Positions 10,104 to 33,000 of a stretch of DNA of 64,000 nt are shown piece after piece. This DNA is from Thermoplasmata archaeon. GTDB taxonomy: Archaea; Thermoplasmatota; Thermoplasmata; UBA10834. The position numbers were made by a program, and so were the translations under genes. The stretch covers positions 2,361 to 66,360 of the forward strand of contig JBFFED010000001.1 in assembly GCA_041559015.1 (NCBI GenBank). The letters run 5' to 3'. Position 1 is the first letter of the stretch. Each line of letters starts with the position of its first letter. Under the pieces are notes generated by a model. The model did not search any database. It saw nothing but the letters and a program-made list of their open reading frames with translations, and was not told the DNA's origin.

Positions 10104-11170
10104 GAGAGTATCTCCCCCAGCCTTCCGCTCTCCTTGGCGAACTTGACCTCTTGGGCTATCCTCCTGCCGGTAGACACACCGGGCTCGAGCAGGTCGGAGT
10201 ACGGGGAGCCGGACACGAACGGGTTGGTGCCCGCCACTATCCTGGACGATATCTCGAACACCTTCACCTGTAGATTGTCGGTCACGATGCACTCGAGGCA
10301 GAACGGGCCAATCATGCCTCCGAACAGCTCCAGGGACTTCTCGACGGCCCTCTCGCCCATGTCCAGCAGCTTCGGGAGCAGGGACTCGCGGACCACGACG
10401 GGCACGTTGCCCGTGACGACGAATGTCGGGAAGAAGCCGAGCTTCTTCAGCTCCTCCTGTGCCCCGAGCTTGTACATCTCGTCTATGTTGGACTCATCGC
10501 GCCTGTCAATGCTAAGGAGCTCGAGCACGCCCTTGCTGAGCTTGTAGCCCTGGGTCCTGATGGGCGAGTAGAAGTAGTGTATGTAGTACCTCGTGCCGAG
10601 GATGTACTCCTGGATTGAGAACTTCTGGCTGTGGTCTATCCCGAGCTTGAAGTCCGGATAGTCCTTCGCTATGAAGAACCCGCGTCCGCCCTTGGCGCCG
10701 TCGTACTTCACGAGCACCGGCCTGTCGATGAGCTTGGGGTCGTCTATCTTCCTGGGCATCTCGAGACCTGCCCCGGTGATCCACAGCCGCTCCTTCTCCC
10801 GGTCGCTCTCCCAGTCGAGGACCGTCCTGTTCCCGAAGGTCGGCACCTCGAGCTCCTCGAAGTTCCTCGTGTTCATGTACTCGATGAAGGAGCCGTGGGG
10901 GACGAGGATCACGTTCCTCTCTGTCAGCTCTGAGGCCCTGTCCAGGAGCTGCGTGTATGAGTCCACGAAGAAGAACTCGTCGGGCTTGCCCCTCGGGAAG
11001 GCATCATAGAACTTGGTTTTCTGTCCGACCGCTATACCAAGGGTCTTGAAGCCCTCCTTCCGGGCGCCGTCGAATATCTGGAGCGACGTGTGAGAACAAG
11101 CGGTGGCGATGACCAGGTTGTCCTTGTCATAGCCATCTATTATGCGGTTGATCCTCTCCCGGGAAACCAT
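10100..11170 (-). CDS. purP: 5-formaminoimidazole-4-carboxamide ribonucleotide (FAICAR) synthetase PurP (archaeal ATP-grasp)
   Basis: Residue-level similarity to archaeal PurP across the full length (…NLVIATACSHTSLQIFDGARKEGF…, …GNVPVVVRESLLP…, …GPFCLE…EISSRI…GTN…GSPYS…). Confidence 0.9.
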   Translation of the reverse strand: MVSRERINRIIDGYDKDNLVIATACSHTSLQIFDGARKEGFKTLGIAVGQKTKFYDAFPRGKPDEFFFVDSYTQLLDRASELTERNVILVPHGSFIEYMNTRNFEELEVPTFGNRTVLDWESDREKERLWITGAGLEMPRKIDDPKLIDRPVLVKYDGAKGGRGFFIAKDYPDFKLGIDHSQKFSIQEYILGTRYYIHYFYSPIRTQGYKLSKGVLELLSIDRRDESNIDEMYKLGAQEELKKLGFFPTFVVTGNVPVVVRESLLPKLLDMGERAVEKSLELFGGMIGPFCLECIVTDNLQVKVFEISSRIVAGTNPFVSGSPYSDLLEPGVSTGRRIAQEVKFAKESGRLGEILS

Positions 11171-11257
11171 TATCGCACATATTCTGTTTTCTGATTTAAA
11201 ACTTGCCTCACCGTTATGGGGCGAGCGTCCAAAGTATAAGACGCAGCCTGGCCGACA

Positions 11258-12022
11258 TCAGACCCTCGCGTGCCGCCTCAGAACCTCGCTCCCCAGGAGG
11301 AGTATCTCAAATCCATTCAGCTCGCCCAGCAAGACGCCGTCGTCGTCGACCACGGGAAGGTCCTCCATGCTGTTGTCTATCATCTTCCTGAGCGCGGTGA
11401 TCAACTTGTCGTCCTGGTAGACCGTGACTGGCTTGACCATGTACTCTTCCACTGAGAACGGCAACACCCCCCTCTTGCTCCTGACCACGGGCCGGTCCTT
11501 GTCGAAGAGCGACAGGGAGCTCTCGATGGCTTTCAGCATCTGATTGAGCCCGATCATCCCCAGTAGACGCCTCCCGTCATCCACCACGTACGCGCTCCTC
11601 GTCCGAGGGTCCGCGAGGACCCTGTCCACGACCTCGTTGAGTATCATCCTCTGCGTGACGATTATCGGGTCGGTCACCACGAGCCTGAAGGCGTCCCGAA
11701 CATACCGGAATGAGAGTTCGTCAGCCATCCTCTCGAACATCCCTGCGCTCAGCTCCCGCTCGACTATCTCGAGCGCGGACCTGCCTGTCTGGGTCAGGGT
11801 GTGCTTCTTCCAGGTCCTCCTGCCAGGCTCCAATTGCTCGAGCACGCCCCTCGACTCCAGCTCCTTGAGGCCGGTGCTCACGTTCTGAATGGAGCGGCCA
11901 GAGTCCTGAGCAATCTCTGAAGCGCCTGCGAACTTGTGGTGCTTGAAGTACCTGATGGTCACGAGCCGTCTGTCGGATCTTATAATCCACTTCGCGATAT
12001 CCCTGGTGTCATTCTCCGCCAT
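11258..12022 (-). CDS. Transcriptional regulator with N-terminal winged-helix DNA-binding domain and a CBS domain pair
   Basis: wHTH region (…ASEIAQDSGRSIQNVSTGLKELESRGVLEQ…) followed by two CBS-like units (…DPIIVTQRMILNEVVDRVL…, …KPVTVYQDDKLITALRKMIDNSMEDLPVVDDDGVLLG…). Divergent from the opine-dehydrogenase operon. Confidence 0.7.
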   Translation of the reverse strand: MAENDTRDIAKWIIRSDRRLVTIRYFKHHKFAGASEIAQDSGRSIQNVSTGLKELESRGVLEQLEPGRRTWKKHTLTQTGRSALEIVERELSAGMFERMADELSFRYVRDAFRLVVTDPIIVTQRMILNEVVDRVLADPRTRSAYVVDDGRRLLGMIGLNQMLKAIESSLSLFDKDRPVVRSKRGVLPFSVEEYMVKPVTVYQDDKLITALRKMIDNSMEDLPVVDDDGVLLGELNGFEILLLGSEVLRRHARV

Positions 12023-12248
12023 GCTATCACTGAGCGAGCCGCAGGACTGGACTCTCTACCGCGCATGCCCTTCGATGATAATCGCTGGCAACCGTTTAAT
12101 AGTTATTCATCATTTATCATAATTAGTCATAGGGATGGCCCCTACTGATCCTCGCCATCTGTGAAACAGACCAGCTGGGGGCATCCCGCAAAGTTATCAC
12201 GAGGGTGTAAGTCTGCGTACCTCCAAATCGAGAGGTGAATCGAGGCCG

Positions 12249-13328
12249 ATTTTCGCGGTCCTTGGGGCCGGGCATGGCGGCCTGGCGATGGCCGGGCACC
12301 TGGCGATCATGGGCTTCCCCACGCGACTCTGGAACAGGTCGCGTGAGAGGATAGACAACGTCAACGACAGGGGCGGCGTCGAGGTCGAGGGGGTCATCGA
12401 GGGCTACGGCAATGTGGAGCTTGCCTCGGACGACATCGAGGAGGTGCTCGACGGCGCGGACGTCGTGATGGTAGTCGTGCCCGCACCTGGGCACAGAGAC
12501 GTCGCCGAGCTGTGCGCGCCCTATCTCACCAATAGGCACTCCGTGATACTCAATCCCGGCAGGACCTTCGGGGCGATAGAGTTCATGAACGTGCTCAGGC
12601 AGAAGAAGGTCAAGGCAAGGCCAATCGTCGCCGAGACGCAGACTTTCATCTATGTGTCAAGGCACGCGGAGCCGGCCAGGGCTAGGATAATCCAGATGAA
12701 GAACTCGGTGCCCTTGGCGGCCATCCCCGCGCACAAGACGCCCCAGGTCCTCGAAGTCGTGAGACGCGCCTTCCCGCAGTTCGTGGCAGCGAGCAACGTG
12801 CTCGAGACGAGCCTCGACAACATAGGTGCGATATTCCACCCGTCGCTCACAATCCTGAATGCCGCAAGGATAGAGTCCACGCACGGGGATTTCGAGTACT
12901 ACCTCGAGGGCATCTCGCCCTCTGCCGCAAGGGTCCTGGAATCGGCGGACGCGGAGCGGGTGGGCGTCGGTGCCGCACTCGGGATACATCTACACACAGC
13001 AAGGGAATGGCTCTATCTAGCCTACGACTCCCCTGGGAGAAGTCTCTACGAGGCGGTCCAGGCGACCCCCGGATACAAAGGCGTCCGCGCCCCCGCCACC
13101 TTGACCCACAGATACATCCTGGAGGACGTCCCCATGAGCCTCGTGCCCATCACATCAGTTGCAGGGCTCGCCGGGGTGAAGACCCCGACCCTCCAGACGC
13201 TCATACATCTTGCATCGACCATGCACGGCCGAGACTTCTGGGCCGAGGGAAGGACCGTCGAGAAGCTCGGGCTGGCAGGCATGTCAGTCAAGGACATCAG
13301 GATGCTGGCCGTCAGGGGTGTGCGCTGA
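12249..13328 (+). CDS. Opine (octopine/nopaline) dehydrogenase-family NAD(P)H oxidoreductase; start likely ATT upstream of the first ATG
   Basis: The track ORF begins at ATG 12288 (MAGHLAIMGF…). The in-frame upstream codons encode IFAVLGAGHGGLA, the GxGxxG Rossmann strand, with no canonical start. GAGGTGA SD-like sequence lies about 9 nt before the ATT at about 12249. C-terminal region matches the Octopine_DH-type domain. Confidence 0.75.
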   Translation: MFAVLGAGHGGLAMAGHLAIMGFPTRLWNRSRERIDNVNDRGGVEVEGVIEGYGNVELASDDIEEVLDGADVVMVVVPAPGHRDVAELCAPYLTNRHSVILNPGRTFGAIEFMNVLRQKKVKARPIVAETQTFIYVSRHAEPARARIIQMKNSVPLAAIPAHKTPQVLEVVRRAFPQFVAASNVLETSLDNIGAIFHPSLTILNAARIESTHGDFEYYLEGISPSAARVLESADAERVGVGAALGIHLHTAREWLYLAYDSPGRSLYEAVQATPGYKGVRAPATLTHRYILEDVPMSLVPITSVAGLAGVKTPTLQTLIHLASTMHGRDFWAEGRTVEKLGLAGMSVKDIRMLAVRGVR

Positions 13329-14986
13329 TTAGGATCCTTGGAGCGGCCATAGGCAACTGTGTCCACGTCGGCGGCATAAATGCGTTCCTGGGGCTGGCGA
13401 AGGGCATGGGATACGAGGTAGAGTTCATGGGCCCTGCGGTCCCGGTCAGGCAGCTGGTGCCCGCGATCAAGCTCAAGAACCCGGACATAGTCGCGCTGAG
13501 CTACAGGTTGACCGCAGAGTCTGCGGCACCCATCTTCGAGGAGCTGAAGGCGGAGATCGAGAAGGACCCTGCCCTTCAGGGCAGGCGATACCTCTTCGGG
13601 GGCACCGCCCCCGTTGCGATGGTCGCCCGCGACAGCGGCATCTTCGAGGCGGCGTTCGACGGCAGCGAGCCTGTGGAGGCCATCAAGGCGGCCCTTCAGA
13701 GAGTACCCGTACCCAAGGAGGAGAGGGTCTGGAGCCCGAGCCTCATAGGTCGGATAGAGAGCTCGTACCCCGTCCCGCTCCTTAGACACCATTTCGGGCT
13801 GCCGAGGATGAAGGACACCCTCGAGGGCGCGAGGAGAATCGCGGAGGCGGGTGTTCTGGACATACTCTCCCTGGCACCCGACCAGAACGCCCAGGAATCC
13901 TTCTTCCGGCCGATGGAGATGGACCCGAACCTGGACGGCGCCGGGGGCGCGCCCTTCAGGAGGCCTGAAGACCTGAAGGCGGTCTGGGACGCCACCAGAA
14001 GGGGCAGCCACCCGCTCCTGAGATGCTACAGCGGCACTCGCGACCTCATAAAGTGGGCGGAGATGCTCAAGTCAACGATCGACATTGCCTGGGGGGCAGT
14101 GCCGATCTCCTGGTACAGTGAGCTGGACGGCCGGTCGAAGCGCCCGCTCAGGGACGCGATCGCGGAGAACCAGGAGGCCATCAGGTGGTACGCCCGGAGC
14201 GGAATCCCGGTCGAGATAAACGAGTCGCATCAGTGGGCCCTGAGGGGCTGCGGCGACACTATAGAGCTTGCGATGGCGTACGTTGCCGCCTGCAACGCGC
14301 GCGCGCTCGGCGTTAGGGACTACGTTTGCCAGCTCATGTTCGACACGCCGAAGGGCATCTCGCCTTCCATGGACCTGGCGAAGATGCTCGCCAAGCTGGA
14401 ACTCGTCGAATCGCTCGCGAACGGCACGTTCAAAGTCATCAGGATGGTGAGGTCCGGGCTGGCATCCCTGTCACCTTCCCAGAATGAGGCGAAGGGCCAG
14501 CTCGCCGCGTCGATATACTCCGCCATGTCCCTTCAGCCGCACATAGTCCATGTCGTTGGTTTCAGCGAGGCCGACCACGTCGCCACGCCCCAGGAGATAA
14601 TCGAGAGCTGTCAGATAGCGAAGGGGGCCGTGGCCAAGGCCCTGCTTGGCATGCCGAGCCCCGAGGCCGATCCAAAGATCGCGGCCAGGAAGGCGCAGCT
14701 GCTTGAGGAGGTGAAGTTCCTCCTGGACGCGGTCAAGAGGACTGGCAGCAAGGAGGTCAAGGAGCCGCTCACATCGCCCGAGGTACTGTCAATGGCGGTG
14801 AAGCGCGGGCTCCTGGACGCCCCCGACCTCAAGGGGAACCCTGCAGCGCTCGGCTCGATCACGACCACGATCGTCAACGGCGCGTGCGTGGCAGTCGACA
14901 GGGCCTCGAACCTTCCGATTCTGGAGAGGGACCGGGTGGCGAAGCTCGCAACAACCGAGGAGGACCTCGACCTCGTGGAGATATAG
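13328..14986 (+). CDS. Fusion of MutS-like B12-binding-type domain and GlmE-like domain (methylaspartate/glutamate-mutase-like)
   Basis: N-terminal about 130 aa resemble the glutamate-mutase S subunit fold (RILGAAIGNCVHVGG…GYEVEFMGPAV…DIVALSYRLT…) but lack the Asp of DxHxxG. The remainder aligns in pattern to GlmE/MamB (…GAVPISWYSELDGRS…IRWYARSGIPVEINESHQWAL…). The only in-frame ATG/GTG/TTG is far upstream inside the opine dehydrogenase gene, so start is placed at the ATT overlapping the opine dehydrogenase stop. Confidence 0.6.
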   Translation: MRILGAAIGNCVHVGGINAFLGLAKGMGYEVEFMGPAVPVRQLVPAIKLKNPDIVALSYRLTAESAAPIFEELKAEIEKDPALQGRRYLFGGTAPVAMVARDSGIFEAAFDGSEPVEAIKAALQRVPVPKEERVWSPSLIGRIESSYPVPLLRHHFGLPRMKDTLEGARRIAEAGVLDILSLAPDQNAQESFFRPMEMDPNLDGAGGAPFRRPEDLKAVWDATRRGSHPLLRCYSGTRDLIKWAEMLKSTIDIAWGAVPISWYSELDGRSKRPLRDAIAENQEAIRWYARSGIPVEINESHQWALRGCGDTIELAMAYVAACNARALGVRDYVCQLMFDTPKGISPSMDLAKMLAKLELVESLANGTFKVIRMVRSGLASLSPSQNEAKGQLAASIYSAMSLQPHIVHVVGFSEADHVATPQEIIESCQIAKGAVAKALLGMPSPEADPKIAARKAQLLEEVKFLLDAVKRTGSKEVKEPLTSPEVLSMAVKRGLLDAPDLKGNPAALGSITTTIVNGACVAVDRASNLPILERDRVAKLATTEEDLDLVEI

Positions 14987-14999
14987 GAGTTCGGATACG

Positions 15000-16475
15000 A
15001 TGCAAGGGATAGCAGGCACATATGGTTCGCCTGACCGGATACTGGCAAGACGGATGGTCGAGAGGATCTCGCACAGGGGTCCAGACAGGAAGGACATGAT
15101 CGAAGATGACGGACTGGCAATCGCGGCTCGTAAGCCCAGGCCGTCCCCGAAAGGCACCGCCAGGGCAATCGTGGAAGGAGATGGTATCGCAGTAGCGTCG
15201 GACAGCTACCTGTTCAACTCGGAGCTCCTCAAGGAGCTCTTCCTGGAGGACTCGGATGAGGACGCCGGAGACGCCGACCTCCTCATAGACATGTACACGG
15301 CCATAGGGACGAAGATGTTCGGGTACCTCGATGGGGCTTTCGCAATCGCGATATCCGACAACGGCCGGCTGGTGCTCGCGAGGGACAGGTACGGACTGAA
15401 ACCCATGTACATCTCCGGGGGCGTCCGCGAGGGCACCTTCTCCTCTGAGATCAAGTCCCAGCTCGTCGCGGGGGACGAGTTCGTGCCCTTCCCTCCAGGG
15501 AAGGTCCTCGTGGCCGGCAAGGGCTTCTCGCCGATGTGGCCTCGTAAGCCCCCGGTGAGCAGGAGCCGCCCGTCAGGAGACAAGCCGAAGAAACTCCGAC
15601 AGCTGGTGATCGACGGGGTGAGGAGCTGCTGCCGGGAAGGGCAGGGTCTGAACGTCCTGCTCAGCGGAGGGATAGACAGCAGCGTGGTTGCCGCAGCGGC
15701 GTCCGAGGTGACGGACGGGCTGTCAACTGTCTGCGTGGGGACCGAGCGGAGCTCGGACCTCAGGATGGCGAGGAAGGTCGCGGAGAGGATAGGCTCCGAC
15801 CACAGGGAGAAGGTATACAGCACCGAGGAGATGCTCGACGTCCTAGAAGAAGTGGTCTGCGCGGCCGAGAGCTTCGATTTCCCGCTCATCAGGAGCTGCA
15901 TACCAAACTACATGGCCACGCACCTGTTTGACGACAGGCACCTGGTCACCTTGTGTGGTGAGGGGGGCGACGAGATCTTCGCGGGGTACGATTACATGCG
16001 CGCCATCAGCGGTGACGAGGCTCTGAGGAGGGAGCGCAGGAAACTGCTCAGGACAGGTTGGATGACGGGGTTCCAGAGGGTTGACAGGATGACCGCGAGC
16101 GCGTCCCTAGACGGGCGCATTCCCCTGATGGGCAGGGACATGGTCGATTTCGGGATGTCGCTCGACAGGAGGGACCTGATAGGCCCCGGCATCGAGCACA
16201 GCAAACTGATCCTGAGGAAGGCGTTCCAGAAGTCCCTGCCGAAGGAAGTCGCGTGGAGGAGGAAGCAGAGGTTCAGCGACGGCGCTGGTTCCATCCAAGC
16301 CCTGGTGTCGATAGCCGAGGATATGATATCCGATGCCGAATTCGAGAAGGAGCGGAGGGTGCTCCCCAGGGGAAGGATAAGGACGAAGGAAGAGCTCCTG
16401 TACTACCGTTACTTCACCGAGGAGTTCCCGTCCAAGAGCGCGGCGGCGGCGGTCGGCTTCACTCCTAGGCCTTAG
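15000..16475 (+). CDS. Asparagine-synthetase-family (AsnB-like) ATP-dependent amide synthetase lacking the N-terminal Cys nucleophile
   Basis: MQGIAGTYG… has Gln where class-II amidotransferases have Cys2. Intact PP-loop SGGIDSS and C-terminal synthetase domain. 491 aa. Confidence 0.85.
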   Translation: MQGIAGTYGSPDRILARRMVERISHRGPDRKDMIEDDGLAIAARKPRPSPKGTARAIVEGDGIAVASDSYLFNSELLKELFLEDSDEDAGDADLLIDMYTAIGTKMFGYLDGAFAIAISDNGRLVLARDRYGLKPMYISGGVREGTFSSEIKSQLVAGDEFVPFPPGKVLVAGKGFSPMWPRKPPVSRSRPSGDKPKKLRQLVIDGVRSCCREGQGLNVLLSGGIDSSVVAAAASEVTDGLSTVCVGTERSSDLRMARKVAERIGSDHREKVYSTEEMLDVLEEVVCAAESFDFPLIRSCIPNYMATHLFDDRHLVTLCGEGGDEIFAGYDYMRAISGDEALRRERRKLLRTGWMTGFQRVDRMTASASLDGRIPLMGRDMVDFGMSLDRRDLIGPGIEHSKLILRKAFQKSLPKEVAWRRKQRFSDGAGSIQALVSIAEDMISDAEFEKERRVLPRGRIRTKEELLYYRYFTEEFPSKSAAAAVGFTPRP

Positions 16476-17268
16476 ATCGAGCCTTCTTCGCTCTGGTCTT
16501 GCGTGCAGCCGGAGTGCGGGCGGGCGGTATCACGTTCCTGCGGCGCTCAGCGGTGGTGTACCTGCAGGCCAACTGACACGCCGTGCACATGACAGTGCTC
16601 TGGGGCGTAAGGGCGGCACAGTGCTTCGACAGCAACTGCTTCAGCTCTGGCTTCGCGCCGGGAGTGGTCGTCACGCCCACGAGGCACCTGCCAGGGTCGA
16701 CCGTGTACGGCTCGAGGGCGTCCGCGGGACAGGCGGTTAGGCATCTCTCGCACTTCCCGCACAGGTCGCCCTCGAAAGGCCTGTCGGGGGCGAGGGGTGC
16801 GTTGGTCAGCACGGCTCCGAACCGGAGCCACGGGCCGTACTTGGGGTGTATGATGAGGGCGTTCTTGCCGTAGCTGCCTACCCCCGCGAGCTGGGCGATG
16901 CGCTTGTAAGAGGCGTACACGGACGGAGCGCACGCCTCGAAGCCGTAGTTCCTGATCACTCTCATCAGCTCGCGCATGATTATGCTGATGGGCATGTATC
17001 CGGGATAGTCCTGACGGCCATCTGACCGCCTGATCTCTATCTCGTCCGCATCGTCGGTCGACAATATGCCGAACAGGACGACCGATCTAGCGTCCGGCAT
17101 AGTGTCGCGTAGCTTCTTGGTCCACCTGTTTATGGTCCACTCGATCTTCACGGGGGGGAGTGCGTCAGCGTCGTCCACTGAGACGATTCCGAACACGACC
17201 GCGCCCTTCTTCCTGGCCCTGTCCCTGAGCACGTCCTTCAGGTCTGCATCTCTCTTGACCGGCACCAT
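16465..17268 (-). CDS. QueG-like Fe-S oxidoreductase (DUF1730 plus two 4Fe-4S ferredoxin motifs)
   Basis: …IIHPKYGPWLRFGAVLTNAPL…CGKCERCLTACP… and a second Cys cluster (…CTACQLAC…) match the epoxyqueuosine-reductase architecture. Basic C-terminal tail. Confidence 0.65.
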   Translation of the reverse strand: MVPVKRDADLKDVLRDRARKKGAVVFGIVSVDDADALPPVKIEWTINRWTKKLRDTMPDARSVVLFGILSTDDADEIEIRRSDGRQDYPGYMPISIIMRELMRVIRNYGFEACAPSVYASYKRIAQLAGVGSYGKNALIIHPKYGPWLRFGAVLTNAPLAPDRPFEGDLCGKCERCLTACPADALEPYTVDPGRCLVGVTTTPGAKPELKQLLSKHCAALTPQSTVMCTACQLACRYTTAERRRNVIPPARTPAARKTRAKKARSKA

Positions 17269-17484
17269 TGTCCCGACCCTGGAATGCGCTCCCGCCTATT
17301 GAATGGTGTCCTCTGGCCAAGGCGCGCCTGTCGAACGGGCCCATGGACGCGATGTCTCCGTCCATAAGTATTCCGGCGAGAGTGGCGAGCGACCAGTCGC
17401 CGCGTGCGTCACACCACCAGGAGCGTCAAGCATTATAAGGCGAGAGCAGATGCGAAGAGGGACATCCACGGGGTGCAGAGGCGC

Positions 17485-18735
17485 ATGACACGGGGGTCCG
17501 ATGACTGCTCCAGACCGTCCAGGAAGAGGCGCATACTGGCCGGCATCAGCACGAACGTCCTCGTGCTTGGGATAGTCAGCCTGCTCACGGACATGAGCAG
17601 TGAGATGATCTATCCGATCATGCCCCTGTTCCTGACGGCGATAGGGGCCAGCGGGCTCGTCATCGGCCTGATAGAGGGCGCCTCCGAGACGACCGCGTCA
17701 CTGATCAAGGTGTTCTCCGGGTGGTACTCTGACAGGTACAGGAGGAGGAAGCCGTTCATCCTCGCAGGGTACGGCTCGAGCTCTGCGGTGAAACCCGTCC
17801 TCTACTTGGCGACCGCTCCGTGGCACGTACTCGGTCTCAAGATAATGGAGCGCGTGGGCAAGGGCGTGAGAAGCGCTCCGAGGGACGCCCTCATCGCCGA
17901 CTCCACGGACAGCGCGTACCGCGGGAGGGCTTTCGGGTTCCACAAGGCCATGGACTCGACCGGCGCGGTCATAGGCCCGCTGCTCGTCCTCCCCGTGCTC
18001 GTGGCCGCAGCGGCGGTCACCACCGACACCTACAGGCTCATCTTCCTCATCTCAGCGATCCCCGCATTTGTTGCGGTCGCGATAATAGTCCTGTTCTTGC
18101 GGGACAAGAAGACCGACCATGCCGACAAGATCGACAAGATGTTCAAGGAGATGAGGCACCTCGGAGACAGGTTCTACCTGCTCCTCATGGTCATCGTGGT
18201 GTTCTACATCGGCGAGATAAGCTACGCGTTCTTCATCCTGAGGGCGATGGACGAGGGCTTCACGGTGTTTGGGCTCGGCGTAGACGCCTCGATTATTCTG
18301 CTGTACGTCACCCTGAACCTATTCTTCGTACTCTTCGCGCTACTGACTGGCGGGATATCGGACAGGATCGGGAGGAAACCCGTCATAGCGGCATCATTTG
18401 TCATCTTCGCATTGACATGCGTGGTCATGACGATGACGGGGTCCTACATGCTGCTGGTGCTCGGGTTCGCGATGTTCGGGGTCTACAAGGGCTCGTCCGA
18501 AGGGGTGCTCAAGGCGTATGTCATCGATGTCGTTCCGAAGGGGCTGAGGGGGACCGCAATGGGAGCGTTCCATACGGCCGTAGGGCTGGTCATGCTGCCG
18601 GGGGGCATAATGGCAGGGTTCCTGTGGGACAGCTACGGACATTGGGCGACCTTCGCCTATGGCGCGTCCGCCGCGTTGTTGGCCCTGGTGCTCCTAATCG
18701 TGATAGCTCCCGATGTGGACAAGAAGGCCGGCTAA
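17485..18735 (+). CDS. MFS transporter
   Basis: 12 predicted TM segments. MFS signature-like loop (…GWYSDRYRRRKPF…). ATG at about 17485 is internal to the track ORF. Confidence 0.8.
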   Translation: MTRGSDDCSRPSRKRRILAGISTNVLVLGIVSLLTDMSSEMIYPIMPLFLTAIGASGLVIGLIEGASETTASLIKVFSGWYSDRYRRRKPFILAGYGSSSAVKPVLYLATAPWHVLGLKIMERVGKGVRSAPRDALIADSTDSAYRGRAFGFHKAMDSTGAVIGPLLVLPVLVAAAAVTTDTYRLIFLISAIPAFVAVAIIVLFLRDKKTDHADKIDKMFKEMRHLGDRFYLLLMVIVVFYIGEISYAFFILRAMDEGFTVFGLGVDASIILLYVTLNLFFVLFALLTGGISDRIGRKPVIAASFVIFALTCVVMTMTGSYMLLVLGFAMFGVYKGSSEGVLKAYVIDVVPKGLRGTAMGAFHTAVGLVMLPGGIMAGFLWDSYGHWATFAYGASAALLALVLLIVIAPDVDKKAG

Positions 18736-25046: not shown

Positions 25047-26948
25047 ATGAGAGGGGGATCTGCTAGGAGGAGCCACAAAATAGTATTCGTGGAGGACCGC
25101 AAGGAGGTCGTGCTCGAGGAGGGCAGGACCGTCCTCGAGGCCTGTCAGGCTGCGGGCATACCCATAGACTCCGTGTGCGGCGGCCGAGGTAAGTGCGGCA
25201 GGTGCAAGGTCAGGGTAACCGGGCACTTCTCCGCGGACCCGAGCCCACTGCTCTCGGAGGCAGAACGGCGCGAGGGGATTGTCCTCGCGTGCCTCGCGAG
25301 GGGTCAGGGGCACCTCAAGGTGCATGTGCTCCCCCGCTCCCGGCTGACGAAACATCAGATACTCACGACCTCGGCCGAGGAGCTGCCAGACCCCATCGCG
25401 CCATGGTGCTGGAAGGAGTTCATCGAGCTCCCCCCGGCGACGCTCTCGGACAACATCGCGGACCTGGAGAGGTTGGCAAGGGCGATGGGCGGAAGGCAGC
25501 TGTCTGTCCCCCTGGAGACCCTCAGGGAGCTCCCGGGGGCGCTCAGGGAGGGCGGATGGAAGGTCACCGTCACGATGTCCGACCTCGGGCGCGGCCCGGA
25601 GGTGGTCAGGGTGGAGCCAGGGGACACTCGCGCTAGGCTTCTCGGGATTGCGGTGGACGTCGGCACGACCACCATAGTCGTCGACCTCGTCGACCTCCTC
25701 ACCGGGAAAGTGCTGGGGACCGCATCAGACTATAACAGGCAGGTCTCCAGAGGGGAGGACGTCATCGCTCGCATGATGCACAGCGAGGAAACGGGCGTGG
25801 AAGATCTCACCGCGCTGGCGAGGGAAACCGTCAACTCGTGCATCGAGTCCCTCCTAGCCGACGAGTCCAGGAGGGCCGGCAAGGCAGTCTCCGCCCAGGA
25901 CATCGTCTCGGCCTCGGTCGCGGGCAACACCGTGATGACACACTTCTTCGCTTGCCTGTCGACCGGGCACGTGCGGCTGGAACCCTACGTTCCAGTGGTG
26001 CACAGGATGCCGGAGTTGAGCGGCGCGGACCTCGGGATGCTCATGAACCACTCGGGGAAGGTCCTGCTGTTCCCTTCCCGAGCCGGGTACGTCGGCGGCG
26101 ATGTCGTGGCGGACGTGCTCGCGAGCGGCATGCACAGGTCGGGCAGGCTCTCGCTCCTGATCGATGTAGGCACGAACGGAGAGGTGGTGCTCGGCACGAA
26201 GGACTGGATCATCACGTGCTCGTGCTCTGCCGGCCCTGCGTTCGAGGGGGCCGAGGTGTCCTGCGGCATGAGGGCCATGGAGGGCGCGATCGACCGCATA
26301 AGGATAAACGATGACCTGTCGACGACATACCACGTGATAGGAGGAGGGCCTCCCCTGGGAATCTGCGGCTCCGGCCTGATAGACCTCCTCTCCGAGATGT
26401 ACACGCACGGGGTCATCGACCGCAAGGCCAGGATACAGGAGCTCGGAGGTGGCAGGACGGTGCCCTCGGAGTCAGGCCTCGCATTCGTCGTCGAGAGGAA
26501 GGAGGAGCTGGGGAACGGAGCGCCGTCGGACATGACGATAACCGATGCCGACCTCCAGAACCTGCTAAGGACGAAGGCGGCGATATACGGTGCTTGCGCG
26601 GTCCTGCTGCGTAAGACCGGGGAGTCGCTCGATGGCATCCACAGGGTGTTCATAGCTGGCGGGTTCGGATACCACCTGGACATCGAGCGCGCGATATCCA
26701 TCGGGATGTTCCCCGACCTGCCCCGGAGGAAGTACACGTTCATAGGCAACGGCGCCCTGGGCGGCGCGAGGCTCGGGCTGTTGTCCAGGAAACGCAGGAA
26801 GGAGGCCGTGGACATCTTCGAGAAGATGACCTACCTGGAGCTGAGCGTCGACAACGAATTCTACAACGAGTTCTCCTCCTCGCTCTTCATACCGCACACA
26901 GACCTGAGCCAGTTCCCCAGCGTGGGCAAGTCGGGGGAGGATGCGTGA
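25047..26948 (+). CDS. Reductive activator of corrinoid Fe-S protein (RACo-like: N-terminal 2Fe-2S ferredoxin plus ASKHA ATPase domain)
   Basis: Plant-type ferredoxin Cys pattern (CGGRGKCGRCKV…LAC). About 500-aa ASKHA/DUF4445-like region with nucleotide-binding Gly loops (…IDVGTNGEVV…, …GICGSG…). Stop overlaps the cooC GTG start. Confidence 0.85.
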   Translation: MRGGSARRSHKIVFVEDRKEVVLEEGRTVLEACQAAGIPIDSVCGGRGKCGRCKVRVTGHFSADPSPLLSEAERREGIVLACLARGQGHLKVHVLPRSRLTKHQILTTSAEELPDPIAPWCWKEFIELPPATLSDNIADLERLARAMGGRQLSVPLETLRELPGALREGGWKVTVTMSDLGRGPEVVRVEPGDTRARLLGIAVDVGTTTIVVDLVDLLTGKVLGTASDYNRQVSRGEDVIARMMHSEETGVEDLTALARETVNSCIESLLADESRRAGKAVSAQDIVSASVAGNTVMTHFFACLSTGHVRLEPYVPVVHRMPELSGADLGMLMNHSGKVLLFPSRAGYVGGDVVADVLASGMHRSGRLSLLIDVGTNGEVVLGTKDWIITCSCSAGPAFEGAEVSCGMRAMEGAIDRIRINDDLSTTYHVIGGGPPLGICGSGLIDLLSEMYTHGVIDRKARIQELGGGRTVPSESGLAFVVERKEELGNGAPSDMTITDADLQNLLRTKAAIYGACAVLLRKTGESLDGIHRVFIAGGFGYHLDIERAISIGMFPDLPRRKYTFIGNGALGGARLGLLSRKRRKEAVDIFEKMTYLELSVDNEFYNEFSSSLFIPHTDLSQFPSVGKSGEDA

Positions 26949-27703
26949 CATTCACTTTCGCTGTGACCGGCAAGGGAGGGGTGGGCAAGACCACCTTCGC
27001 AGCGCTTGCGATCAGGCACATACACGAGGCGACGAAGGAGGTCGTGCTGGCGGTCGACGCCGACCCCAACGCGAACCTCGGGGCGAAGCTGGGGACCGAG
27101 CCCGCGAAAACCTTGGGCGGCATCCGGGAGGACATGCTCGCCAGGGGTGAGGACGAGCCTCCGGCGGGGGTCTCGAAGCAGGAGCATCTGGACTACCAGA
27201 TACGCCTGGCCGTCAAGGAGGGGACAGGCTTCGACCTCCTGACCATGGGGAGGCAGGAGGGGCCGGGGTGCTACTGCTATGTCAACAACATGCTCCGGAA
27301 CATCGTCGACTCCCTCTCGGACAGGTACAAGTACGTGGTCATAGACAACGAAGCGGGCATGGAGCACCTCAGCAGGAGGACCACGAAGGCCTCGGACGCG
27401 ATGTTCGTCCTGTGTGACAGGAGCAGGGGCTCCTTGGCCGCCGCGCAGAGGATATCCCAGCTGGCGGACGAGATGAAGATCCAGATATCGAGGAAAGCGC
27501 TGGTCTTCAACGGGCTCGACCCCGGCGCGGAAGGGCCGCCGTCACAGGCGGTTGAGAGATTCCATGCGGTCTATGGGGTGCGCAGATCGGGGAGGATACT
27601 CTCGAGCGCGGAGGAGACGGAGTCCCTCATGGGGATACCCAGGACCGACCCCGCCTTCACTGACATCGCTAGGGCCGTGGACGCCGAGAGGCTCCGGCGG
27701 TGA
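26945..27703 (+). CDS. cooC: CODH nickel-insertion accessory ATPase CooC (MinD/ParA-type)
   Basis: Deviant Walker A VTGKGGVGKTT. CooC-specific CxC metal motif GPGCYCYVNN. About 250 aa. Confidence 0.85.
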   Translation: MTFTFAVTGKGGVGKTTFAALAIRHIHEATKEVVLAVDADPNANLGAKLGTEPAKTLGGIREDMLARGEDEPPAGVSKQEHLDYQIRLAVKEGTGFDLLTMGRQEGPGCYCYVNNMLRNIVDSLSDRYKYVVIDNEAGMEHLSRRTTKASDAMFVLCDRSRGSLAAAQRISQLADEMKIQISRKALVFNGLDPGAEGPPSQAVERFHAVYGVRRSGRILSSAEETESLMGIPRTDPAFTDIARAVDAERLRR

Positions 27704-27706
27704 AAC

Positions 27707-29041
27707 TCACCCGGAGAGCGTCTTAAGCATCTTCGGCAGGCCCGAGGACTCCCTCGGGCCCACGACCACCTTCATGTCTGTCAGCTCGTTCAGCTTCCCG
27801 CTCATCCTGGTGACCATGCCCGGGATGACTATCTCGTTCCTGGTGCACTTCTCCTTGACCTTCTCCGCCTCTATGAGCGTCGCGACCGACTCCGGCGTCA
27901 GCTTGCCCGCGGCGAACGCGGTCATGACCGACTGGCCGTCGGTGTCGACCACCAGGAGCCAGACGGGGAGCTTGCTCTTCTCTATGTCCGCGCGCACAGT
28001 GAAGTACGTCAGCGAGAAGTTGGTGGTGAACAGCAGGGGCGAGCTGCCTGTGGGCTCGCCCACCGTGTACAGGCCCGCCTTGACCTGTATCGGCACCTGC
28101 GGGTCCGTGAATATGTTCTGCCTCAGCGCCATGAGCGGGTAGACGAACTCCGGGGGCATCTCGTCCATGAGCACCACGGATGAGTACTTCATGACCCCGA
28201 GGACAGCCTTCATCCTGTCCCCTTCGGAAGTGCCGAGAACCGATATGGTCGGATACCCGAGGGGCCTGAACTTCTTCTTCACCGCCGCACGCCTGATGAT
28301 AGTCATGTTCTCCAGCATCTGCCCCGCGGACGACCCCTTGGGCTCCAGCACCAGGTCCGAAACGCCAGCCTTCTTCGCCTTGTCCGCGAGTTCGGCGAGC
28401 TTGCCCAGGTCATCGGCCCCTCCGACCACGAGCGGGAACCCGCACGCCTTCGCCGCCTGGACCATCGCATCGAAGTTGTCCGGGGTCGCCCTGTAGAGCA
28501 GCGGCCTCGCCTCGGCGCACGCAGAAGCGGCCTCTGACATCAGCTTCGGGTCCTCCGTCATGAGCACTACCGGGACGGTCATGGTCGAGGCGTACTTCGC
28601 GGCCTCGAGGAAGTCATCCGGGGTGCCGCTCGAGTGCCTGACGGCCACGGAGTCTATCCTAATCATCTGCCCGACGCGCTCGTAGTAGGTGGCCTTCGCG
28701 TCCTGCATCTTCGCCTTCATCTTCTCGAGGCCCTCGGAGTCGTCGGCTATCACGCCGAGCACAGTCGGGTGGTAGAACGTCTTGTCGTGCCTGAACAGCT
28801 GCGTCTCGTCCCCGATCTTGGCGGGCGAGCCGCTCCAGCCGAATGAGACGAGCCTCACCGGAGGCGCCCCGCTCTCCTCCAGGACGGTCTTGGCCTCGGG
28901 GCTGACGTACGGGCACGCCTCCAGGGCCACCTTCTGGTTTGCCAGCTGCATGGCGAACGCCAGGCAGGTGGGGAACTTGCACTCCCCGCAGTTCTTCTTT
29001 GGGAGGAGCTTGTAAATCTCCATCGCGGTCGGCACGCTCAT
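27707..29041 (-). CDS. acsC: Corrinoid iron-sulfur protein large subunit (AcsC/CdhE, acetyl-CoA decarbonylase/synthase gamma)
   Basis: N-terminal 4Fe-4S motif …KKNCGECKFPTCLAFAMQLA… followed by TIM-barrel and corrinoid-binding regions. Internal ATG (MSVPTAMEIYKLLP) forms an ATGA overlap with the acsD stop. Confidence 0.9.
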   Translation of the reverse strand: MSVPTAMEIYKLLPKKNCGECKFPTCLAFAMQLANQKVALEACPYVSPEAKTVLEESGAPPVRLVSFGWSGSPAKIGDETQLFRHDKTFYHPTVLGVIADDSEGLEKMKAKMQDAKATYYERVGQMIRIDSVAVRHSSGTPDDFLEAAKYASTMTVPVVLMTEDPKLMSEAASACAEARPLLYRATPDNFDAMVQAAKACGFPLVVGGADDLGKLAELADKAKKAGVSDLVLEPKGSSAGQMLENMTIIRRAAVKKKFRPLGYPTISVLGTSEGDRMKAVLGVMKYSSVVLMDEMPPEFVYPLMALRQNIFTDPQVPIQVKAGLYTVGEPTGSSPLLFTTNFSLTYFTVRADIEKSKLPVWLLVVDTDGQSVMTAFAAGKLTPESVATLIEAEKVKEKCTRNEIVIPGMVTRMSGKLNELTDMKVVVGPRESSGLPKMLKTLSG

Positions 29042-29991
29042 CCACCTCCCGCGAGGTCCTTGGCGGCCTGCCGGAAGAGCGTGACCGATTCGGGATGTCT
29101 CATGATGACGATATCCGCCCCCGCGACGACAGCGGAGTAGGCCGTGATGGCCTCCCAGTAGACGCCCCTCTCGTGGCGCGGGCCCTTCTTCGGGTCCTCC
29201 TCCATCACGTCCGGGACACCCCAGGCGCACGACGCGTCACATATGATCGGCATCTGCAGGACAGGGTCCCCTGAGAGGGCGCCCTGCCTGAGCCGCTCGA
29301 TGACTGAGTAGGAGTACTCGAGCCCCATGCCCAGCGCGGCCATCAGCGGGTCGATGATGATATTCTCAGGCTTCACGCCGAAATCGAGCAGCAGGATGTT
29401 CATCTGCTTCGCCAGGTTGATGTCCAGGTTGGAGAACGCGACCATCCCGTGCCCGTTGGCCATCGACGCGGCCGCGAGGGACTTGAAAGCCTTCTCCTCC
29501 GCGAGCCCGATGAAGAGCCGCTCGCCCTTGCCGGCGTTCGATACCGCCTCCATCAGCTTCGCGTCCTTCTCCTCGGAACCACACCCGTAGACGAGCATGG
29601 GCAGCGACACCGACTTCAGGACCTCCTTGAAGAGCGACTCGCACTCCTCGACCGGCCTGTTCTCTTCCTCGGGGTTGGCGGATGCGAGCCTCAGTAGGAG
29701 GGCGTCCGCGCCCCACTCCTTCTCGCACTTCCTGGCCCACTCCACTGGTTCCTTCGCGATCGAGCCCATGGACCCGAGCAGCGCCTCCGGGACGAGCCTG
29801 GGCGTATCCACGACGTCCATGACCACCGCGGGCGGGCGCGAGACATGGCTCTCGAACCTGTTGAACGGCAGCCCGTCCGAGCCCCCTATCACGATGCTCG
29901 AGCTCCTCGTCCCGCCCTGCTCCTTGGTCGCGCCTATGACGACCTCCCGTATCTTGCCCGCAAATCGTTCCTTCGGCACATCGAAATCCAT
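29038..29991 (-). CDS. acsD: Corrinoid iron-sulfur protein small subunit (AcsD/CdhD, delta subunit)
   Basis: 317 aa TIM-barrel protein matching CdhD/AcsD patterns. Sits directly between acsAB and acsC. Confidence 0.85.
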   Translation of the reverse strand: MDFDVPKERFAGKIREVVIGATKEQGGTRSSSIVIGGSDGLPFNRFESHVSRPPAVVMDVVDTPRLVPEALLGSMGSIAKEPVEWARKCEKEWGADALLLRLASANPEEENRPVEECESLFKEVLKSVSLPMLVYGCGSEEKDAKLMEAVSNAGKGERLFIGLAEEKAFKSLAAASMANGHGMVAFSNLDINLAKQMNILLLDFGVKPENIIIDPLMAALGMGLEYSYSVIERLRQGALSGDPVLQMPIICDASCAWGVPDVMEEDPKKGPRHERGVYWEAITAYSAVVAGADIVIMRHPESVTLFRQAAKDLAGGG

Positions 29992-30009: not shown

Positions 30010-33000
30010 TCACTTGATCATAGGTTCCATCGACAAGGCCGGGTGCTGCACCTTCGTCATCCACTCTATGAGCTCCTCCGGCGTCTTGGCGACCGTCTCG
30101 TCCGCGATCTTGTCCACGAAATCGGGCACGCCTACCTCCTCCGAGCGCCTCTTGAGCTCCTCCTTCATGGCCTCCTTGAGGTCCTTCGGCATCCAGACGA
30201 TCCTGAGGAAGCCCCCGTCCGCGCTGATGAACTTCTTGCTGGTGAGGTACTTCCTGCCGATCCCGATGAACCCGGGGGTCTGTATGCCTCCCCCGACCGA
30301 GCCGGCGAGGGTGGAGAAGGTCATACCCATGGGCGTCATGCCAGGGAACTCCCGGTTCACCACCACGACGCCCTGAAGGTCGGGCGACATCCCCACGATG
30401 CACTCGAAGCAGCCACAGGACGTCATCGGGTCCTCGACCATCGTGTAAGCGCTGAACTTCTGTAGCTTGCCGTGGGTCTTCTCAGCGACCGCTTCGTTGA
30501 CGCCCGTCCACTGGCCCTTGACCTCGTCTACTGTCTGCTTCTTGGGCACGGGGCTATTGGGCCCAGTCGGCGCTATCTGGAACGAGGCCTTCGCGTCGAG
30601 CCAGTTGATGGCGCCGCACAGCCCGAGCCTCTCGGGCGTGACTATGCACACGTGCCCCGGGGCGAAGCTCTGGCACAGGGTGCATGTGTAGAATATGTCC
30701 ACGTTCTCGTCCGTCAGGGTCGCGATCCTCGCGTCCCTCTCCTCGTACGCGGCCTTCGCCTCGTCTACATGCTTCCTCAGCTCGGCCTCGTCCGTGATTA
30801 TGGTGACCTCGACCTTGGAGACTATGGCCCCGAATTCCTGCTTGAGCTTGGTCGCGAGAATCTCCCCGAAGTGCTTCAGCCTCAGACCGCTCTTGAACGC
30901 GGACTTGCTTAGCCTGACCCAGAGCAGGTTCCTCTGGCCGGTGTGCCACCCGCCCTCGGCGAAGTTGATGAATTGGTGGAACCTGCGTTCCAGCACCGGC
31001 TCGAAGTCCGGCTGCATGTTCTTGCCGTAGACATGGACTATGATGCCCAGGTGGGTCGAGCCGCCCTCGGGCATCTCGTCGACGTCCTTGCCTATGAGAG
31101 TAACCTTGCCGTCCGAGACCTCCTCCGGGCCGCGCATCCTCAGTAGCTCGAACGCGAGCGTCTTGGACGGGCCGCCGGCCTCGATGTGCATGTCCGGCCT
31201 CCTGATGGTCTCGCCCTCAAACGCAGGGCCGTAAGGAACCGGGAGGTCCATCGCCCCTAGCTTTATCCTGCAGCCCCTGACCTCGATTGCGGTCGCAATC
31301 ATCTCGTCCAAGTTCTTCTGGACGACGTACTTGTCGGGGATGGGCTCGACGTCCTGGTCGGTGATTGTCGGCGAGCCGTTGAACATGACCGCGAACTCCG
31401 CGGCGACCTTGATGTGGTCGAGCGGTCCCAGCTGGAGCACGAACACCTTGGGCCTCTTGGAGAGGTAGTTGTACAGTCCTTCCCGGTCACCCTTCTGTAT
31501 GCCCCCGAACGAGAGCGCTGCCCTGATGGCGAAGTTCAGGCCGTGGATGGCCTGTGTGAACTCCCCCACTGGATAGAGCATCCTGTCAAGGCCCATCGAG
31601 ATACTCTCGTCCTTGAGCTGCTTGATGATGTCGTAGGTCGCGATTATGAGCATGCCCTTGTTCTGGCAGTCCCTGATCATGGCCGCCAGCTTCTTTGGGT
31701 CGCTTGCGCGCCCGACGAACACGGCCGCCCCAGGTATCGTGTCGTCGACGAAGGCGATCCCCAGCTGCCTCAGTATCCTGTCCGGGACGAACCCGCAGTA
31801 CATCGTCCCCTCGTAGGGTGTCTGTGTCTCGATGTACTTGAGCGCCTCGACTATCTCTGCGGCAATCATGGTCGCCTCGCCAGAGGCGACCGCCGCCTCG
31901 AATGTCGGCTCCTCCCTTATCTTGCCCCTCGCCTCGCCCAGGAGCATCGGCAGGTCCCCCAGTCGGGTGCAGTCCCTTCCCAGCCAGGCGAACAGGCTTG
32001 GGAGCTGGTAGCCGGTCTCCGGGAACTCGATCTTCTGGTCGGGGCCGTACTTCCTCAGCGCCCTGCTCAGGAGCACATCAGCGTAACCCGTCGCGATTAT
32101 CGAGCCCTCGATGGCCATCTTGAAGAGCTTTGCGTTCGTGACCTTCTCCCCGGTCGGGACATAATGCGATGCGCGCTCCACCTCGGGGTCCGTGAGGTCC
32201 AGCCGCCAGCGCCTGTACTCGATTGCGGAGTAGAGCCTCTTGGCGGCCTCGTGCCCGTCCTCCTCGAATATGAAGTACCCGCCGTAGACGTCCCTTGCGG
32301 TGTTCTCGAGCACCTCGGTGACGAGCGTGCTCCCGTAAAGGTAGTTCATCGTGCCGACATGGACCGGGAAGCCCATCGTAACCGCCCATGTGCCGATGGA
32401 GACTGCCTTCTCGTGCATCGCCTCCGGGGCGATGGCCACGAAGGGTATCTGGTGGATGTCGACACCCATCCGGTTCGCCACCTCGGTCGCGAGGTTAGAA
32501 TAACGGGGGTTGTCCACGCACGAGCCTATGTGCCACACGCACGGGAGGCCCTCCAGCCCCGAGGCATCCGCGAGCTCCGCAAGGAAGGACTGGAGTCCTT
32601 CGCCCGCGAACTCCTTCGCCTTCGCGGGGTCCATGAACCCGCCTTTCGCGAGCTCGATCGCGTTGCACCCGGTGGTGAGGAGGAGCACATCCCTCTTCGC
32701 CAGCTCTCGCGCTATGGTGAGTACGTCGGAGTCCTCCTTCGCGCGGGTGTTCTTGCACCCGGCGAAGAGCGCTAGCCCGCGGATCCTGCCCTTGACTATG
32801 CAGTCTACCAGGAACTGGAACGGGTCCTCACGATTCTTCTTTGAGAACAGCTCCTTGATCTGCTCGACGCTGAACCCGGCCATCACCGCCGCCGGCTTCA
32901 CGTCCGGTAGGCGCCTGATCTTCCCACGGTGCCTGTATGCCTCCGCTGCGAGTATGAGCACGTCGCGCGCTGAGGCCTTGGCCCGCTCTGGCGTGAACTC

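Follow-up and report, generated by a model that had tools for sequence, protein, structure and literature searches.

A 64,000-nucleotide stretch of a genome assembly from a Thermoplasmata archaeon (GenBank assembly GCA_041559015.1, contig JBFFED010000001.1, positions 2,361 to 66,360 of the forward strand; hereafter the window) carries at 15000-16475 a gene for a protein of 491 residues that resembles the asparagine synthetase AsnB but is without the N-terminal cysteine of that enzyme. The sequence of the protein, its relatives and the operon in which the gene lies suggest that it is probably an AsnB-type amide synthetase that acts independently of glutamine, most likely using ammonia, and that it is derived from a short-form AsnB that fills this place of the operon elsewhere, in other lineages. 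The features of the gene that bear on this proposal are the following.

15000-16475, plus strand: AsnB-like gene (491 residues), with an apparently glutaminase-dead class II amidotransferase domain at residues ∼1-170 and an intact AsnB-type synthetase domain at residues ∼213-491
14987-14990, plus strand: GGAG, a ribosome-binding-like (Shine-Dalgarno-like) motif 10 nt 5′ of the ATG
15000-15005, plus strand: Met1-Gln2, where AsnB has its Cys1 nucleophile
15201-15218, plus strand: D68-S69-Y70-L-F-N73, in place of the AsnB oxyanion/glutamine motif N74-G75-E76-I-Y-N79
15663-15683, plus strand: PP-loop SGGIDSS, the ATP pyrophosphatase motif, residues 222-228
15954-15974, plus strand: C319-G-E321-G-G-D324-E325, equivalent to AsnB S346/E348/D351/E352, comprising the catalytic Glu and the acidic cluster to which the substrate α-amino group binds
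16065-16088, plus strand: T-G357-F-Q-R360-V-D-R, in which AsnB D384 is replaced by Gly and R387 is retained
16263-16283, plus strand: K422-Q-R-F-S-D-G, with the equivalent of AsnB K449, an essential lysine in contact with the acyl-adenylate phosphate

Start of the gene and the glutaminase domain

The open reading frame begins with the codons ATG CAA GGG ATA and is translated as MQGIAGTYG. The first-pass annotation, which was made from the nucleotide sequence, held that this Met-Gln start leaves the protein with no N-terminal Cys, and this is borne out both by direct reading of the frame and by the protein family, in which Cys is never found at this position. A sequencing error or a mis-called start at codon 2 is ruled out, because CAA differs from the cysteine codons TGC and TGT at every one of the three bases and because the same nine residues form the N-terminus of four relatives from independent assemblies (P0001, P0002, P0004 and P0005), the proteins of which are 80-97% identical. 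An upstream start that would expose a Cys-first N-terminus was also looked for and is excluded, since the 66 in-frame codons between the ATG and the TGA at 14799 include one CTG and no ATG, GTG, TTG or Cys codon. The stop codon of the preceding gene, which encodes a putative mutase (see below), is located at 14984-14986, and the 13 nt between it and the ATG are consistent with co-transcription of the two genes.

A search of ∼5.8 billion proteins yielded ∼100 clusters with at least 45% identity to the AsnB-like protein, and all of those with a named source are from metagenome-assembled genomes of Thermoplasmatota or "Methanobacteriota". Ninety-four full-length members were aligned with Escherichia coli AsnB, the residue numbering of which is used hereafter for the family. 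The position of AsnB Cys1 is occupied by Glu in 44 members, Gln in 28, His in four and Leu in two, and never by Cys, 14 of the 94 being without an N-terminus owing to gene calling. Other residues of the active site have been replaced as well: Asn74 is Asp in all 94 members, Gly75 is Ser in 83 and Glu76 is Tyr in 78, the Arg49 position is variable, and Asp98 is the sole survivor of the set of oxyanion and glutamine-ligand residues tested (R49, N74, G75, E76 and D98). The four-layer N-terminal nucleophile (Ntn) fold of the domain is present in an AlphaFold2 model, the glutaminase domains of PurF and GlmS are also matched, and the Pfam match to GATase_7 is weak (1.9e-12). With Cys1, the oxyanion pair Asn74-Gly75 and Glu76 replaced and Arg49 not conserved, it is predicted that the N-terminal domain cannot hydrolyse glutamine, as had been claimed when the start was first read, and the loss of the glutaminase appears to be ancient and family-wide rather than peculiar to one gene.

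The synthetase domain and its nearest relatives

The C-terminal half of the protein matches Pfam Asn_synthase at 2.5e-51. Residues S234, D238, R324, E348, D351, E352, Y357, R387, K429 and K449 are near-universal in the 94 homologues, and the initial impression that the PP-loop SGGIDSS and the synthetase domain are intact is upheld, the adenylating residues being conserved in nearly all members. In human ASNS, which has been assayed using NH4Cl, activity requires the equivalents of E348 and D351, the K449 equivalent touches the adenylate phosphate, and the D384 equivalent belongs to the substrate amino-group pocket, while a computational model has the D351 equivalent binding the substrate α-amino group (PMC6748925). 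Relative to the E. coli and human enzymes, D384 is changed to Gly, T321/T322 to Pro/Leu and S346 to Cys, and the family is without both the 14-residue insert that follows the PP-loop and the ∼45-residue C-terminal tail of AsnB.

The NCBIfam model for asparagine synthase B (NF006949), which has a curated equivalog cut-off of 499 bits, is matched end to end at 316.9 bits (residues 3-485 to model positions 3-515 of 554). E. coli AsnB is the best solved relative, at 1.1e-46 with the single sequence and 3.3e-85 with the family profile against PDB entry 1ct9, and is followed in the profile comparison by human ASNS, β-lactam synthetase (β-LS; 1e-33) and CarA (2e-23). When the AlphaFold2 model of the AsnB-like protein (predicted local distance difference test, pLDDT, 88.6; predicted template modelling score, pTM, 0.89) was compared with known structures by Foldseek, the top match was again 1ct9, with both domains superposed and a TM-score of 0.88; the scores for β-LS and CarA are 0.75-0.78 and ∼0.7, respectively. 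The protein shares with AsnB (E. coli 1ct9; human ASNS 6gq3) the common two-domain fold, the PP-loop and E348, D351, E352, Y357, R387, K429 and K449, and with the short-form AsnBs (∼490-505 residues, NF006949), which in other lineages take up this position of the operon, a [P/A]321-L322 and I/L376 signature. It differs from AsnB in the absence of Cys1, in having D-S-Y for N74-G75-E76, in an R49 position that is not conserved, and in a Gly at D384, a position that is Asn in the short AsnBs.

Mutants C1A and C1S of E. coli AsnB, the former of which is the form in PDB 1ct9, reportedly keep ammonia-dependent synthesis. An abolished glutaminase beside an intact synthetase, as these mutants are said to have, is also the phenotype that would be expected of the AsnB-like protein, except that here the loss is natural, apparently ancient and accompanied by additional decay of the glutamine pocket. 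A natural parallel is offered by NadE, a PP-loop amidating family whose lineages are reported to differ in whether they possess a functional glutaminase for one and the same reaction (PMC3376133). In NadE, however, it is a separate nitrilase-type domain that has been lost or gained, whereas here an Ntn-type domain is retained in an inactive state.

Enzymes of the AsnB fold without the Cys nucleophile include β-LS (1jgt) and CarA (1q15), which resemble the archaeal protein further in their vestigial N-terminal domain and in carboxylate adenylation. Profile alignment to 1jgt places the Glu of the family's GEG opposite the Tyr of the β-LS GYG (Tyr348), so that β-LS differs from the protein in this residue as well as in its gene context and in a similarity far lower than that to AsnB. 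Lasso cyclases, the peptide amidases TsrC/ScdTA, the nitrile synthetase PesC and TsnB9 have in common with it the chemistry of an adenylating, asparagine synthetase-like domain (PMC13060819), but the protein scores far below those natural-product families. Membership of the lasso cyclases was considered and rejected, the score on the lasso peptide cyclase model NF033535 being 102.8 bits against a cut-off of 525, and no precursor peptide, lasso protease or genes for peptides that are made ribosomally and then modified post-translationally (RiPPs) were found nearby in 87 loci. Cys-less enzymes of the AsnB fold are already known (β-LS, CarA, lasso cyclases), and this protein differs from them in being a naturally glutaminase-dead AsnB proper that keeps the catalytic Glu.

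The three-gene operon

The AsnB-like gene is the last of three co-oriented, closely spaced genes, the first two of which encode an opine-dehydrogenase-like protein and a B12-binding, mutase-like protein (hereafter the mutase). These two genes and a semi-conserved neighbour are located as follows.

12249-13328, plus strand: opine-dehydrogenase-like gene, first of the trio, with an uncertain 5′ end (Pfam Octopine_DH, 3e-47)
13325-14986, plus strand: second gene of the trio, a fused B12-binding domain and glutamate-mutase-E-like TIM barrel of ∼553 residues (Pfam B12-binding, AlphaFold2, Foldseek)
11258-12022, minus strand: divergent CBS-domain/winged-helix regulator, semi-conserved operon neighbour (same layout in locus L007; cluster in 22 loci)

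Residue 2 of the operon-linked AsnB-like genes is Ala in 19 cases, Gln in 13, Glu in 12, Cys in 10, Ser in nine and His in one. All nine distinct Cys1 forms keep R49, N74, G75, E76, N79 and D98 and reach 517-655 bits against the AsnB equivalog (cut-off 499); in every Cys-less operon form N74 is replaced or the entire R49-E76 segment is deleted (∼445-residue forms), and the synthetase residues are alike in the two groups. The Cys1 forms belong to a large family of short (∼490-505 residues) bacterial AsnBs that all have a complete glutaminase site and are marked by a [P/A]321-L322, I376 and N384 signature. Such Cys-type enzymes stand alone in Formimonas and in a Chlorobi genome and are found in the trio on a Thermoanaerobacter-labelled contig. 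In a rough neighbour-joining tree, drawn without support values, the Cys-less forms make up one clade beside the operon-linked Cys forms. Since a canonical glutamine-dependent AsnB fills the same operon slot in some lineages, the operon step would be an amidation with ammonia nitrogen.

The ∼445-residue operon proteins start with MAGIAG or MSGIAG, the segment equivalent to AsnB residues ∼49-76 being gone, and are encoded at metagenomic loci L123, L131, L139-L141, L145, L149, L156, L158, L162, L167 and L171. In these proteins the decay of the glutaminase has gone a step further. A number of the loci that encode them look bacterial, with MutS adjoining.

The trio is present in two complete genomes (57% identity for the AsnB-like proteins) and on contigs with otherwise different flanks (52% identity). 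A scan of genome contigs with the AsnB-like profile found two true family members, both in the trio, and was otherwise largely uninformative, being swamped by generic AsnB-family genes. The mutase gene lies directly upstream of the AsnB-like gene in all six main-family loci outside the window, and, of the AsnB-like clusters whose contig reaches 5 kb, at least 42 of 72 have a mutase among the matches listed on the same contig. A metagenome scan with the mutase profile gave 80 loci (50-77% identity), in which the mutase gene is directly preceded by the opine dehydrogenase gene wherever there is enough room (70 of 70) and followed by an AsnB-like gene in 51 of 58. At L012/L119, L120, L128, L129, L146 and L150 the 7-8 kb downstream of the opine-dehydrogenase/mutase pair contain no AsnB-like gene, which implies that the two-gene core can exist without an adjacent amidating enzyme. 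Neither a fourth conserved gene nor a glutaminase gene in or near the operon was detected across the 87 loci. Bacterial Cys-less relatives with 31-39% identity (among them Biomaibacter, Chloroflexota, Rubrobacter and Syntrophomonadaceae) have no mutase or dehydrogenase in their flanks and are therefore uninformative on the operon.

The product of the first gene matches N-(1-D-carboxyethyl)-L-norvaline dehydrogenase (PDB 1bg6) at 1.1e-72. Its Rossmann motif, FAVLGAGHGG, is encoded 5′ of the first canonical start, ATG 12288, as it also is at L007, and the 5′ end of the gene is uncertain for this reason. No ATG, GTG or TTG occurs between the preceding stop and the motif (window positions 12165-12290), and the gene likely begins at a non-canonical codon, either ATT 12249, ∼10 nt after GAGGTGA, or CTG 12207; TTG, GTG or ATG is seen at the corresponding start in the relatives L001, L002 and L014.

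The Pfam B12-binding domain is present in all 23 mutase members, and the cobalamin motif (window positions 13325-13700, residues 9-16 of the mutase) is an invariant C11-x-H13-x-x-G16 in the 23 aligned homologues, with Cys in place of the Asp of DxHxxG and the His and Gly kept. Such a replacement of the Asp of the His-Asp pair is unusual. The best Foldseek match of the AlphaFold2 model of the mutase (pLDDT 88) is glutamate mutase E (1cb7_B, E=4.6e-17, TMt 0.67), followed by ornithine and lysine aminomutases and methylmalonyl-CoA mutase. Beyond the B12-binding domain no Pfam family was matched in the mutase itself, while a single homologue matches Met_asp_mut_E (PF06368) at 2e-5. Searches of the PDB with phmmer and hmmsearch recovered the B12 domain only, with no match to the barrel, and an hhalign comparison with GlmE of E. 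coli O157 was not significant, except for a short C-terminal G-[VL]-LD-[VA]-P motif in common, and yielded no residue-level correspondence for the glutamate-binding arginine claw. At the sequence level the link between the barrel and GlmE thus appears weak, and it is the fold search and the one weak Pfam match that point to it. The mutase resembles GlmS/GlmE in possessing a B12-binding Rossmann domain and a GlmE-like TIM barrel, and differs in joining these in a single protein that begins with the S-like part, in having CxHxxG rather than DxHxxG, and in having neither GlmL nor methylaspartase nearby.

The conserved N-terminus of the mutase (consensus MKILGAAIGNCVH) starts at CTG 13325 or ATT 13328, overlapping the opine-dehydrogenase stop codon TGA 13326-13328 (CTGA). 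The sole canonical in-frame start, ATG 13007, would add 106 residues and a 320-nt overlap with the upstream gene. The closest database mutases (P0121, P0125-P0127, P0130 and P0131) have been called from an internal Met and so are without the cobalamin motif.

Semi-conserved neighbours of the operon include the CBS/winged-helix regulator, a Na+/H+ exchanger, MFS and EamA transporters, MscS and an amino-acid permease. The transporters, MscS and the exchanger might fit a product that is exported or osmotically relevant, but this osmolyte idea is suggestive only, a hint, because many of the loci are closely related and not independent. Directly downstream, the AsnB-like stop overlaps by 11 nt a convergent gene (16465-17268, minus strand) for a QueG/reductive-dehalogenase-like Fe-S protein of 267 residues, which is not found at this position in L001, L002 or L007. 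A search of 11000-17500 against Rfam in E-value mode gave a chance HIV_PBS match only, with no riboswitch or other RNA element, and no terminator-like sites were found around the operon. Elsewhere in the window, a 1399-residue open reading frame (30010-34209, minus strand) fuses a carbon monoxide dehydrogenase (Prismane/CODH) domain to the β subunit of acetyl-CoA synthase (CdhC plus the ACS C-terminal domain). Near this fusion (25047-29230) are genes for CdhD and for the corrinoid-protein activase RACo, and the organism carries Wood-Ljungdahl machinery.

Predicted reaction, alternatives and significance

It is proposed that the C-terminal domain of the AsnB-like protein binds ATP, adenylates a carboxylate and releases pyrophosphate, and that ammonia then attacks the acyl-AMP, with Glu321 (AsnB Glu348) as the catalytic residue, to give a carboxamide and AMP. 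The N-terminal domain keeps its Ntn-amidotransferase fold and has probably been preserved as a structural partner to the synthetase half. The enzyme would descend from a short-form glutamine-dependent AsnB in the same position of the operon, the glutaminase having been lost in several lineages, including this Thermoplasmatota clade, plausibly as a reflection of an ammonium-rich anoxic habitat. Free ammonia would be the expected nitrogen source because the glutamine route appears closed, in the manner that E. coli AsnB with a mutated Cys1 is said to behave. The first-pass annotation had offered free ammonia and intramolecular amide formation as the two ways out; the former is favoured here and the latter no longer stands as an equal alternative, given the kept Glu348, the closeness to AsnB and the Cys-type orthologues.

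The carboxylate could well be aspartate, a choice that falls a little short of an even prospect and which is favoured by a synthetase pocket essentially as in the short AsnBs that pass the NCBI equivalog model; the acidic cluster for the α-amino group is kept. An aspartate-like product of the mutase or dehydrogenase (for example, an N-carboxyalkyl derivative, or 3-methylaspartate from a glutamate-mutase-like reaction) is a possible substrate of somewhat lower probability, for which the very tight linkage to these two genes and the further change at position 384 can be cited.

Several observations count against a simple ammonia-dependent AsnB. The protein is under the AsnB equivalog cut-off (317 versus 499 bits), and plain asparagine synthesis would leave the tight operon linkage unexplained. 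The substrate amino-group pocket appears altered, with Gly at D384 and Pro/Leu at T321/T322. The N-terminal domain is nearly as conserved as the synthetase domain (mean pairwise identity 49.6% versus 59.1%), with Asp68 invariant and Ser69 and Tyr70 present in most members, which hints that it may have a function beyond scaffolding. As a sign of a substrate other than aspartate, the pocket changes are weakened, because short Cys-type AsnBs that pass the equivalog model have Asn384 and [P/A]-L at 321/322, that is, the same or similar residues.

One alternative is a pathway-specific amide ligase, in which an organic amine (for example, an amino acid, or an opine from the neighbouring dehydrogenase that reacts through its secondary amine) would attack the adenylated carboxylate to form an intermolecular amide instead of a primary carboxamide. 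The gene is strictly linked to those for the opine dehydrogenase and the mutase, the changes at D384 and T321/T322 would enlarge or alter the acceptor pocket, and the conserved N-terminal domain could bind the second substrate. Such a ligase is nonetheless considered unlikely, since orthologues in the same slot carry a complete glutaminase that delivers NH3 and the pocket changes are common to stand-alone short AsnBs named asparagine synthase B by the NCBI model.

Less probable again is a cyclase of the β-LS/CarA type, which would cyclize an aspartate-like, N-substituted opine by intramolecular amide formation. Like this protein, β-LS and CarA are without the Cys nucleophile, and the substrate of β-LS is an N-carboxyethyl amino acid, an opine-like compound of interest beside an opine dehydrogenase gene in the same operon. 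Cyclization is disfavoured because the family has Glu where β-LS has Tyr348, because AsnB is far closer than β-LS or CarA by both sequence and fold, and because Cys-type orthologues occupy the same operon position with a complete glutaminase site, which would be useless to a cyclase.

Continued dependence on glutamine, through a separate glutaminase partner or some other nucleophile of the N-terminal domain, is highly improbable despite the purifying selection on that domain and an invariant basic residue, K134, at the position of human ASNS Arg142. The whole family has other residues in place of Cys1 and N74, as most members do in place of E76, R49 is not conserved, the segment is deleted in related forms, and a partner is unlikely because no fourth gene, a glutaminase included, is conserved across the 87 loci. 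Methionine aminopeptidase does not process Met-Glu or Met-Gln, so that neither start would be converted to a free nucleophile. One active site being dead, the protein might be imagined to be a non-catalytic pseudoenzyme or a subunit that regulates the mutase/dehydrogenase pair, but this is scarcely credible when the adenylation and catalytic synthetase residues are kept in nearly all of the ∼94 homologues, down to 45% identity.

The glutamine-independent, probably ammonia-using synthetase proposed here has consequences for annotation. Many JGI copies of the protein are labelled "asparagine synthase (glutamine-hydrolysing)", and an 81% identical homologue (P0005) is labelled "7-cyano-7-deazaguanine synthase" at NCBI; the "glutamine-hydrolysing" designation is wrong for the Thermoplasmatota clade, and the latter name is misleading. 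In the searchable literature nothing relevant was found for the gene trio, methylasparagine or a Cys-less archaeal AsnB, and the operon of opine dehydrogenase, B12 mutase and AsnB, which appears to be undescribed there, seems the more interesting lead. More speculatively, the trio might constitute an undescribed three-enzyme pathway, widespread among anaerobic archaea and bacteria, in which a glutamate-type skeleton is rearranged (for example, to 3-methylaspartate), N-carboxyalkylated and amidated. The product would be a small molecule of a new opine type, a compatible solute or metallophore for instance, and the AsnB-like protein a dedicated amidating enzyme rather than a housekeeping asparagine synthetase.

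With its CxHxxG mutase and opine dehydrogenase, the operon points to an unrecognized part of the metabolism of nitrogen or amino acids in Thermoplasmatota of sediments and in several phyla of bacteria. Its AsnB-like forms offer a natural series, from intact glutaminase through loss of the Cys and decay of the pocket to deletion of the segment, in which the uncoupling of an amidotransferase from glutamine can be studied, and the repeated loss of the glutaminase, if the present interpretation is true, would represent a natural switch of an amidotransferase from glutamine to ammonia.

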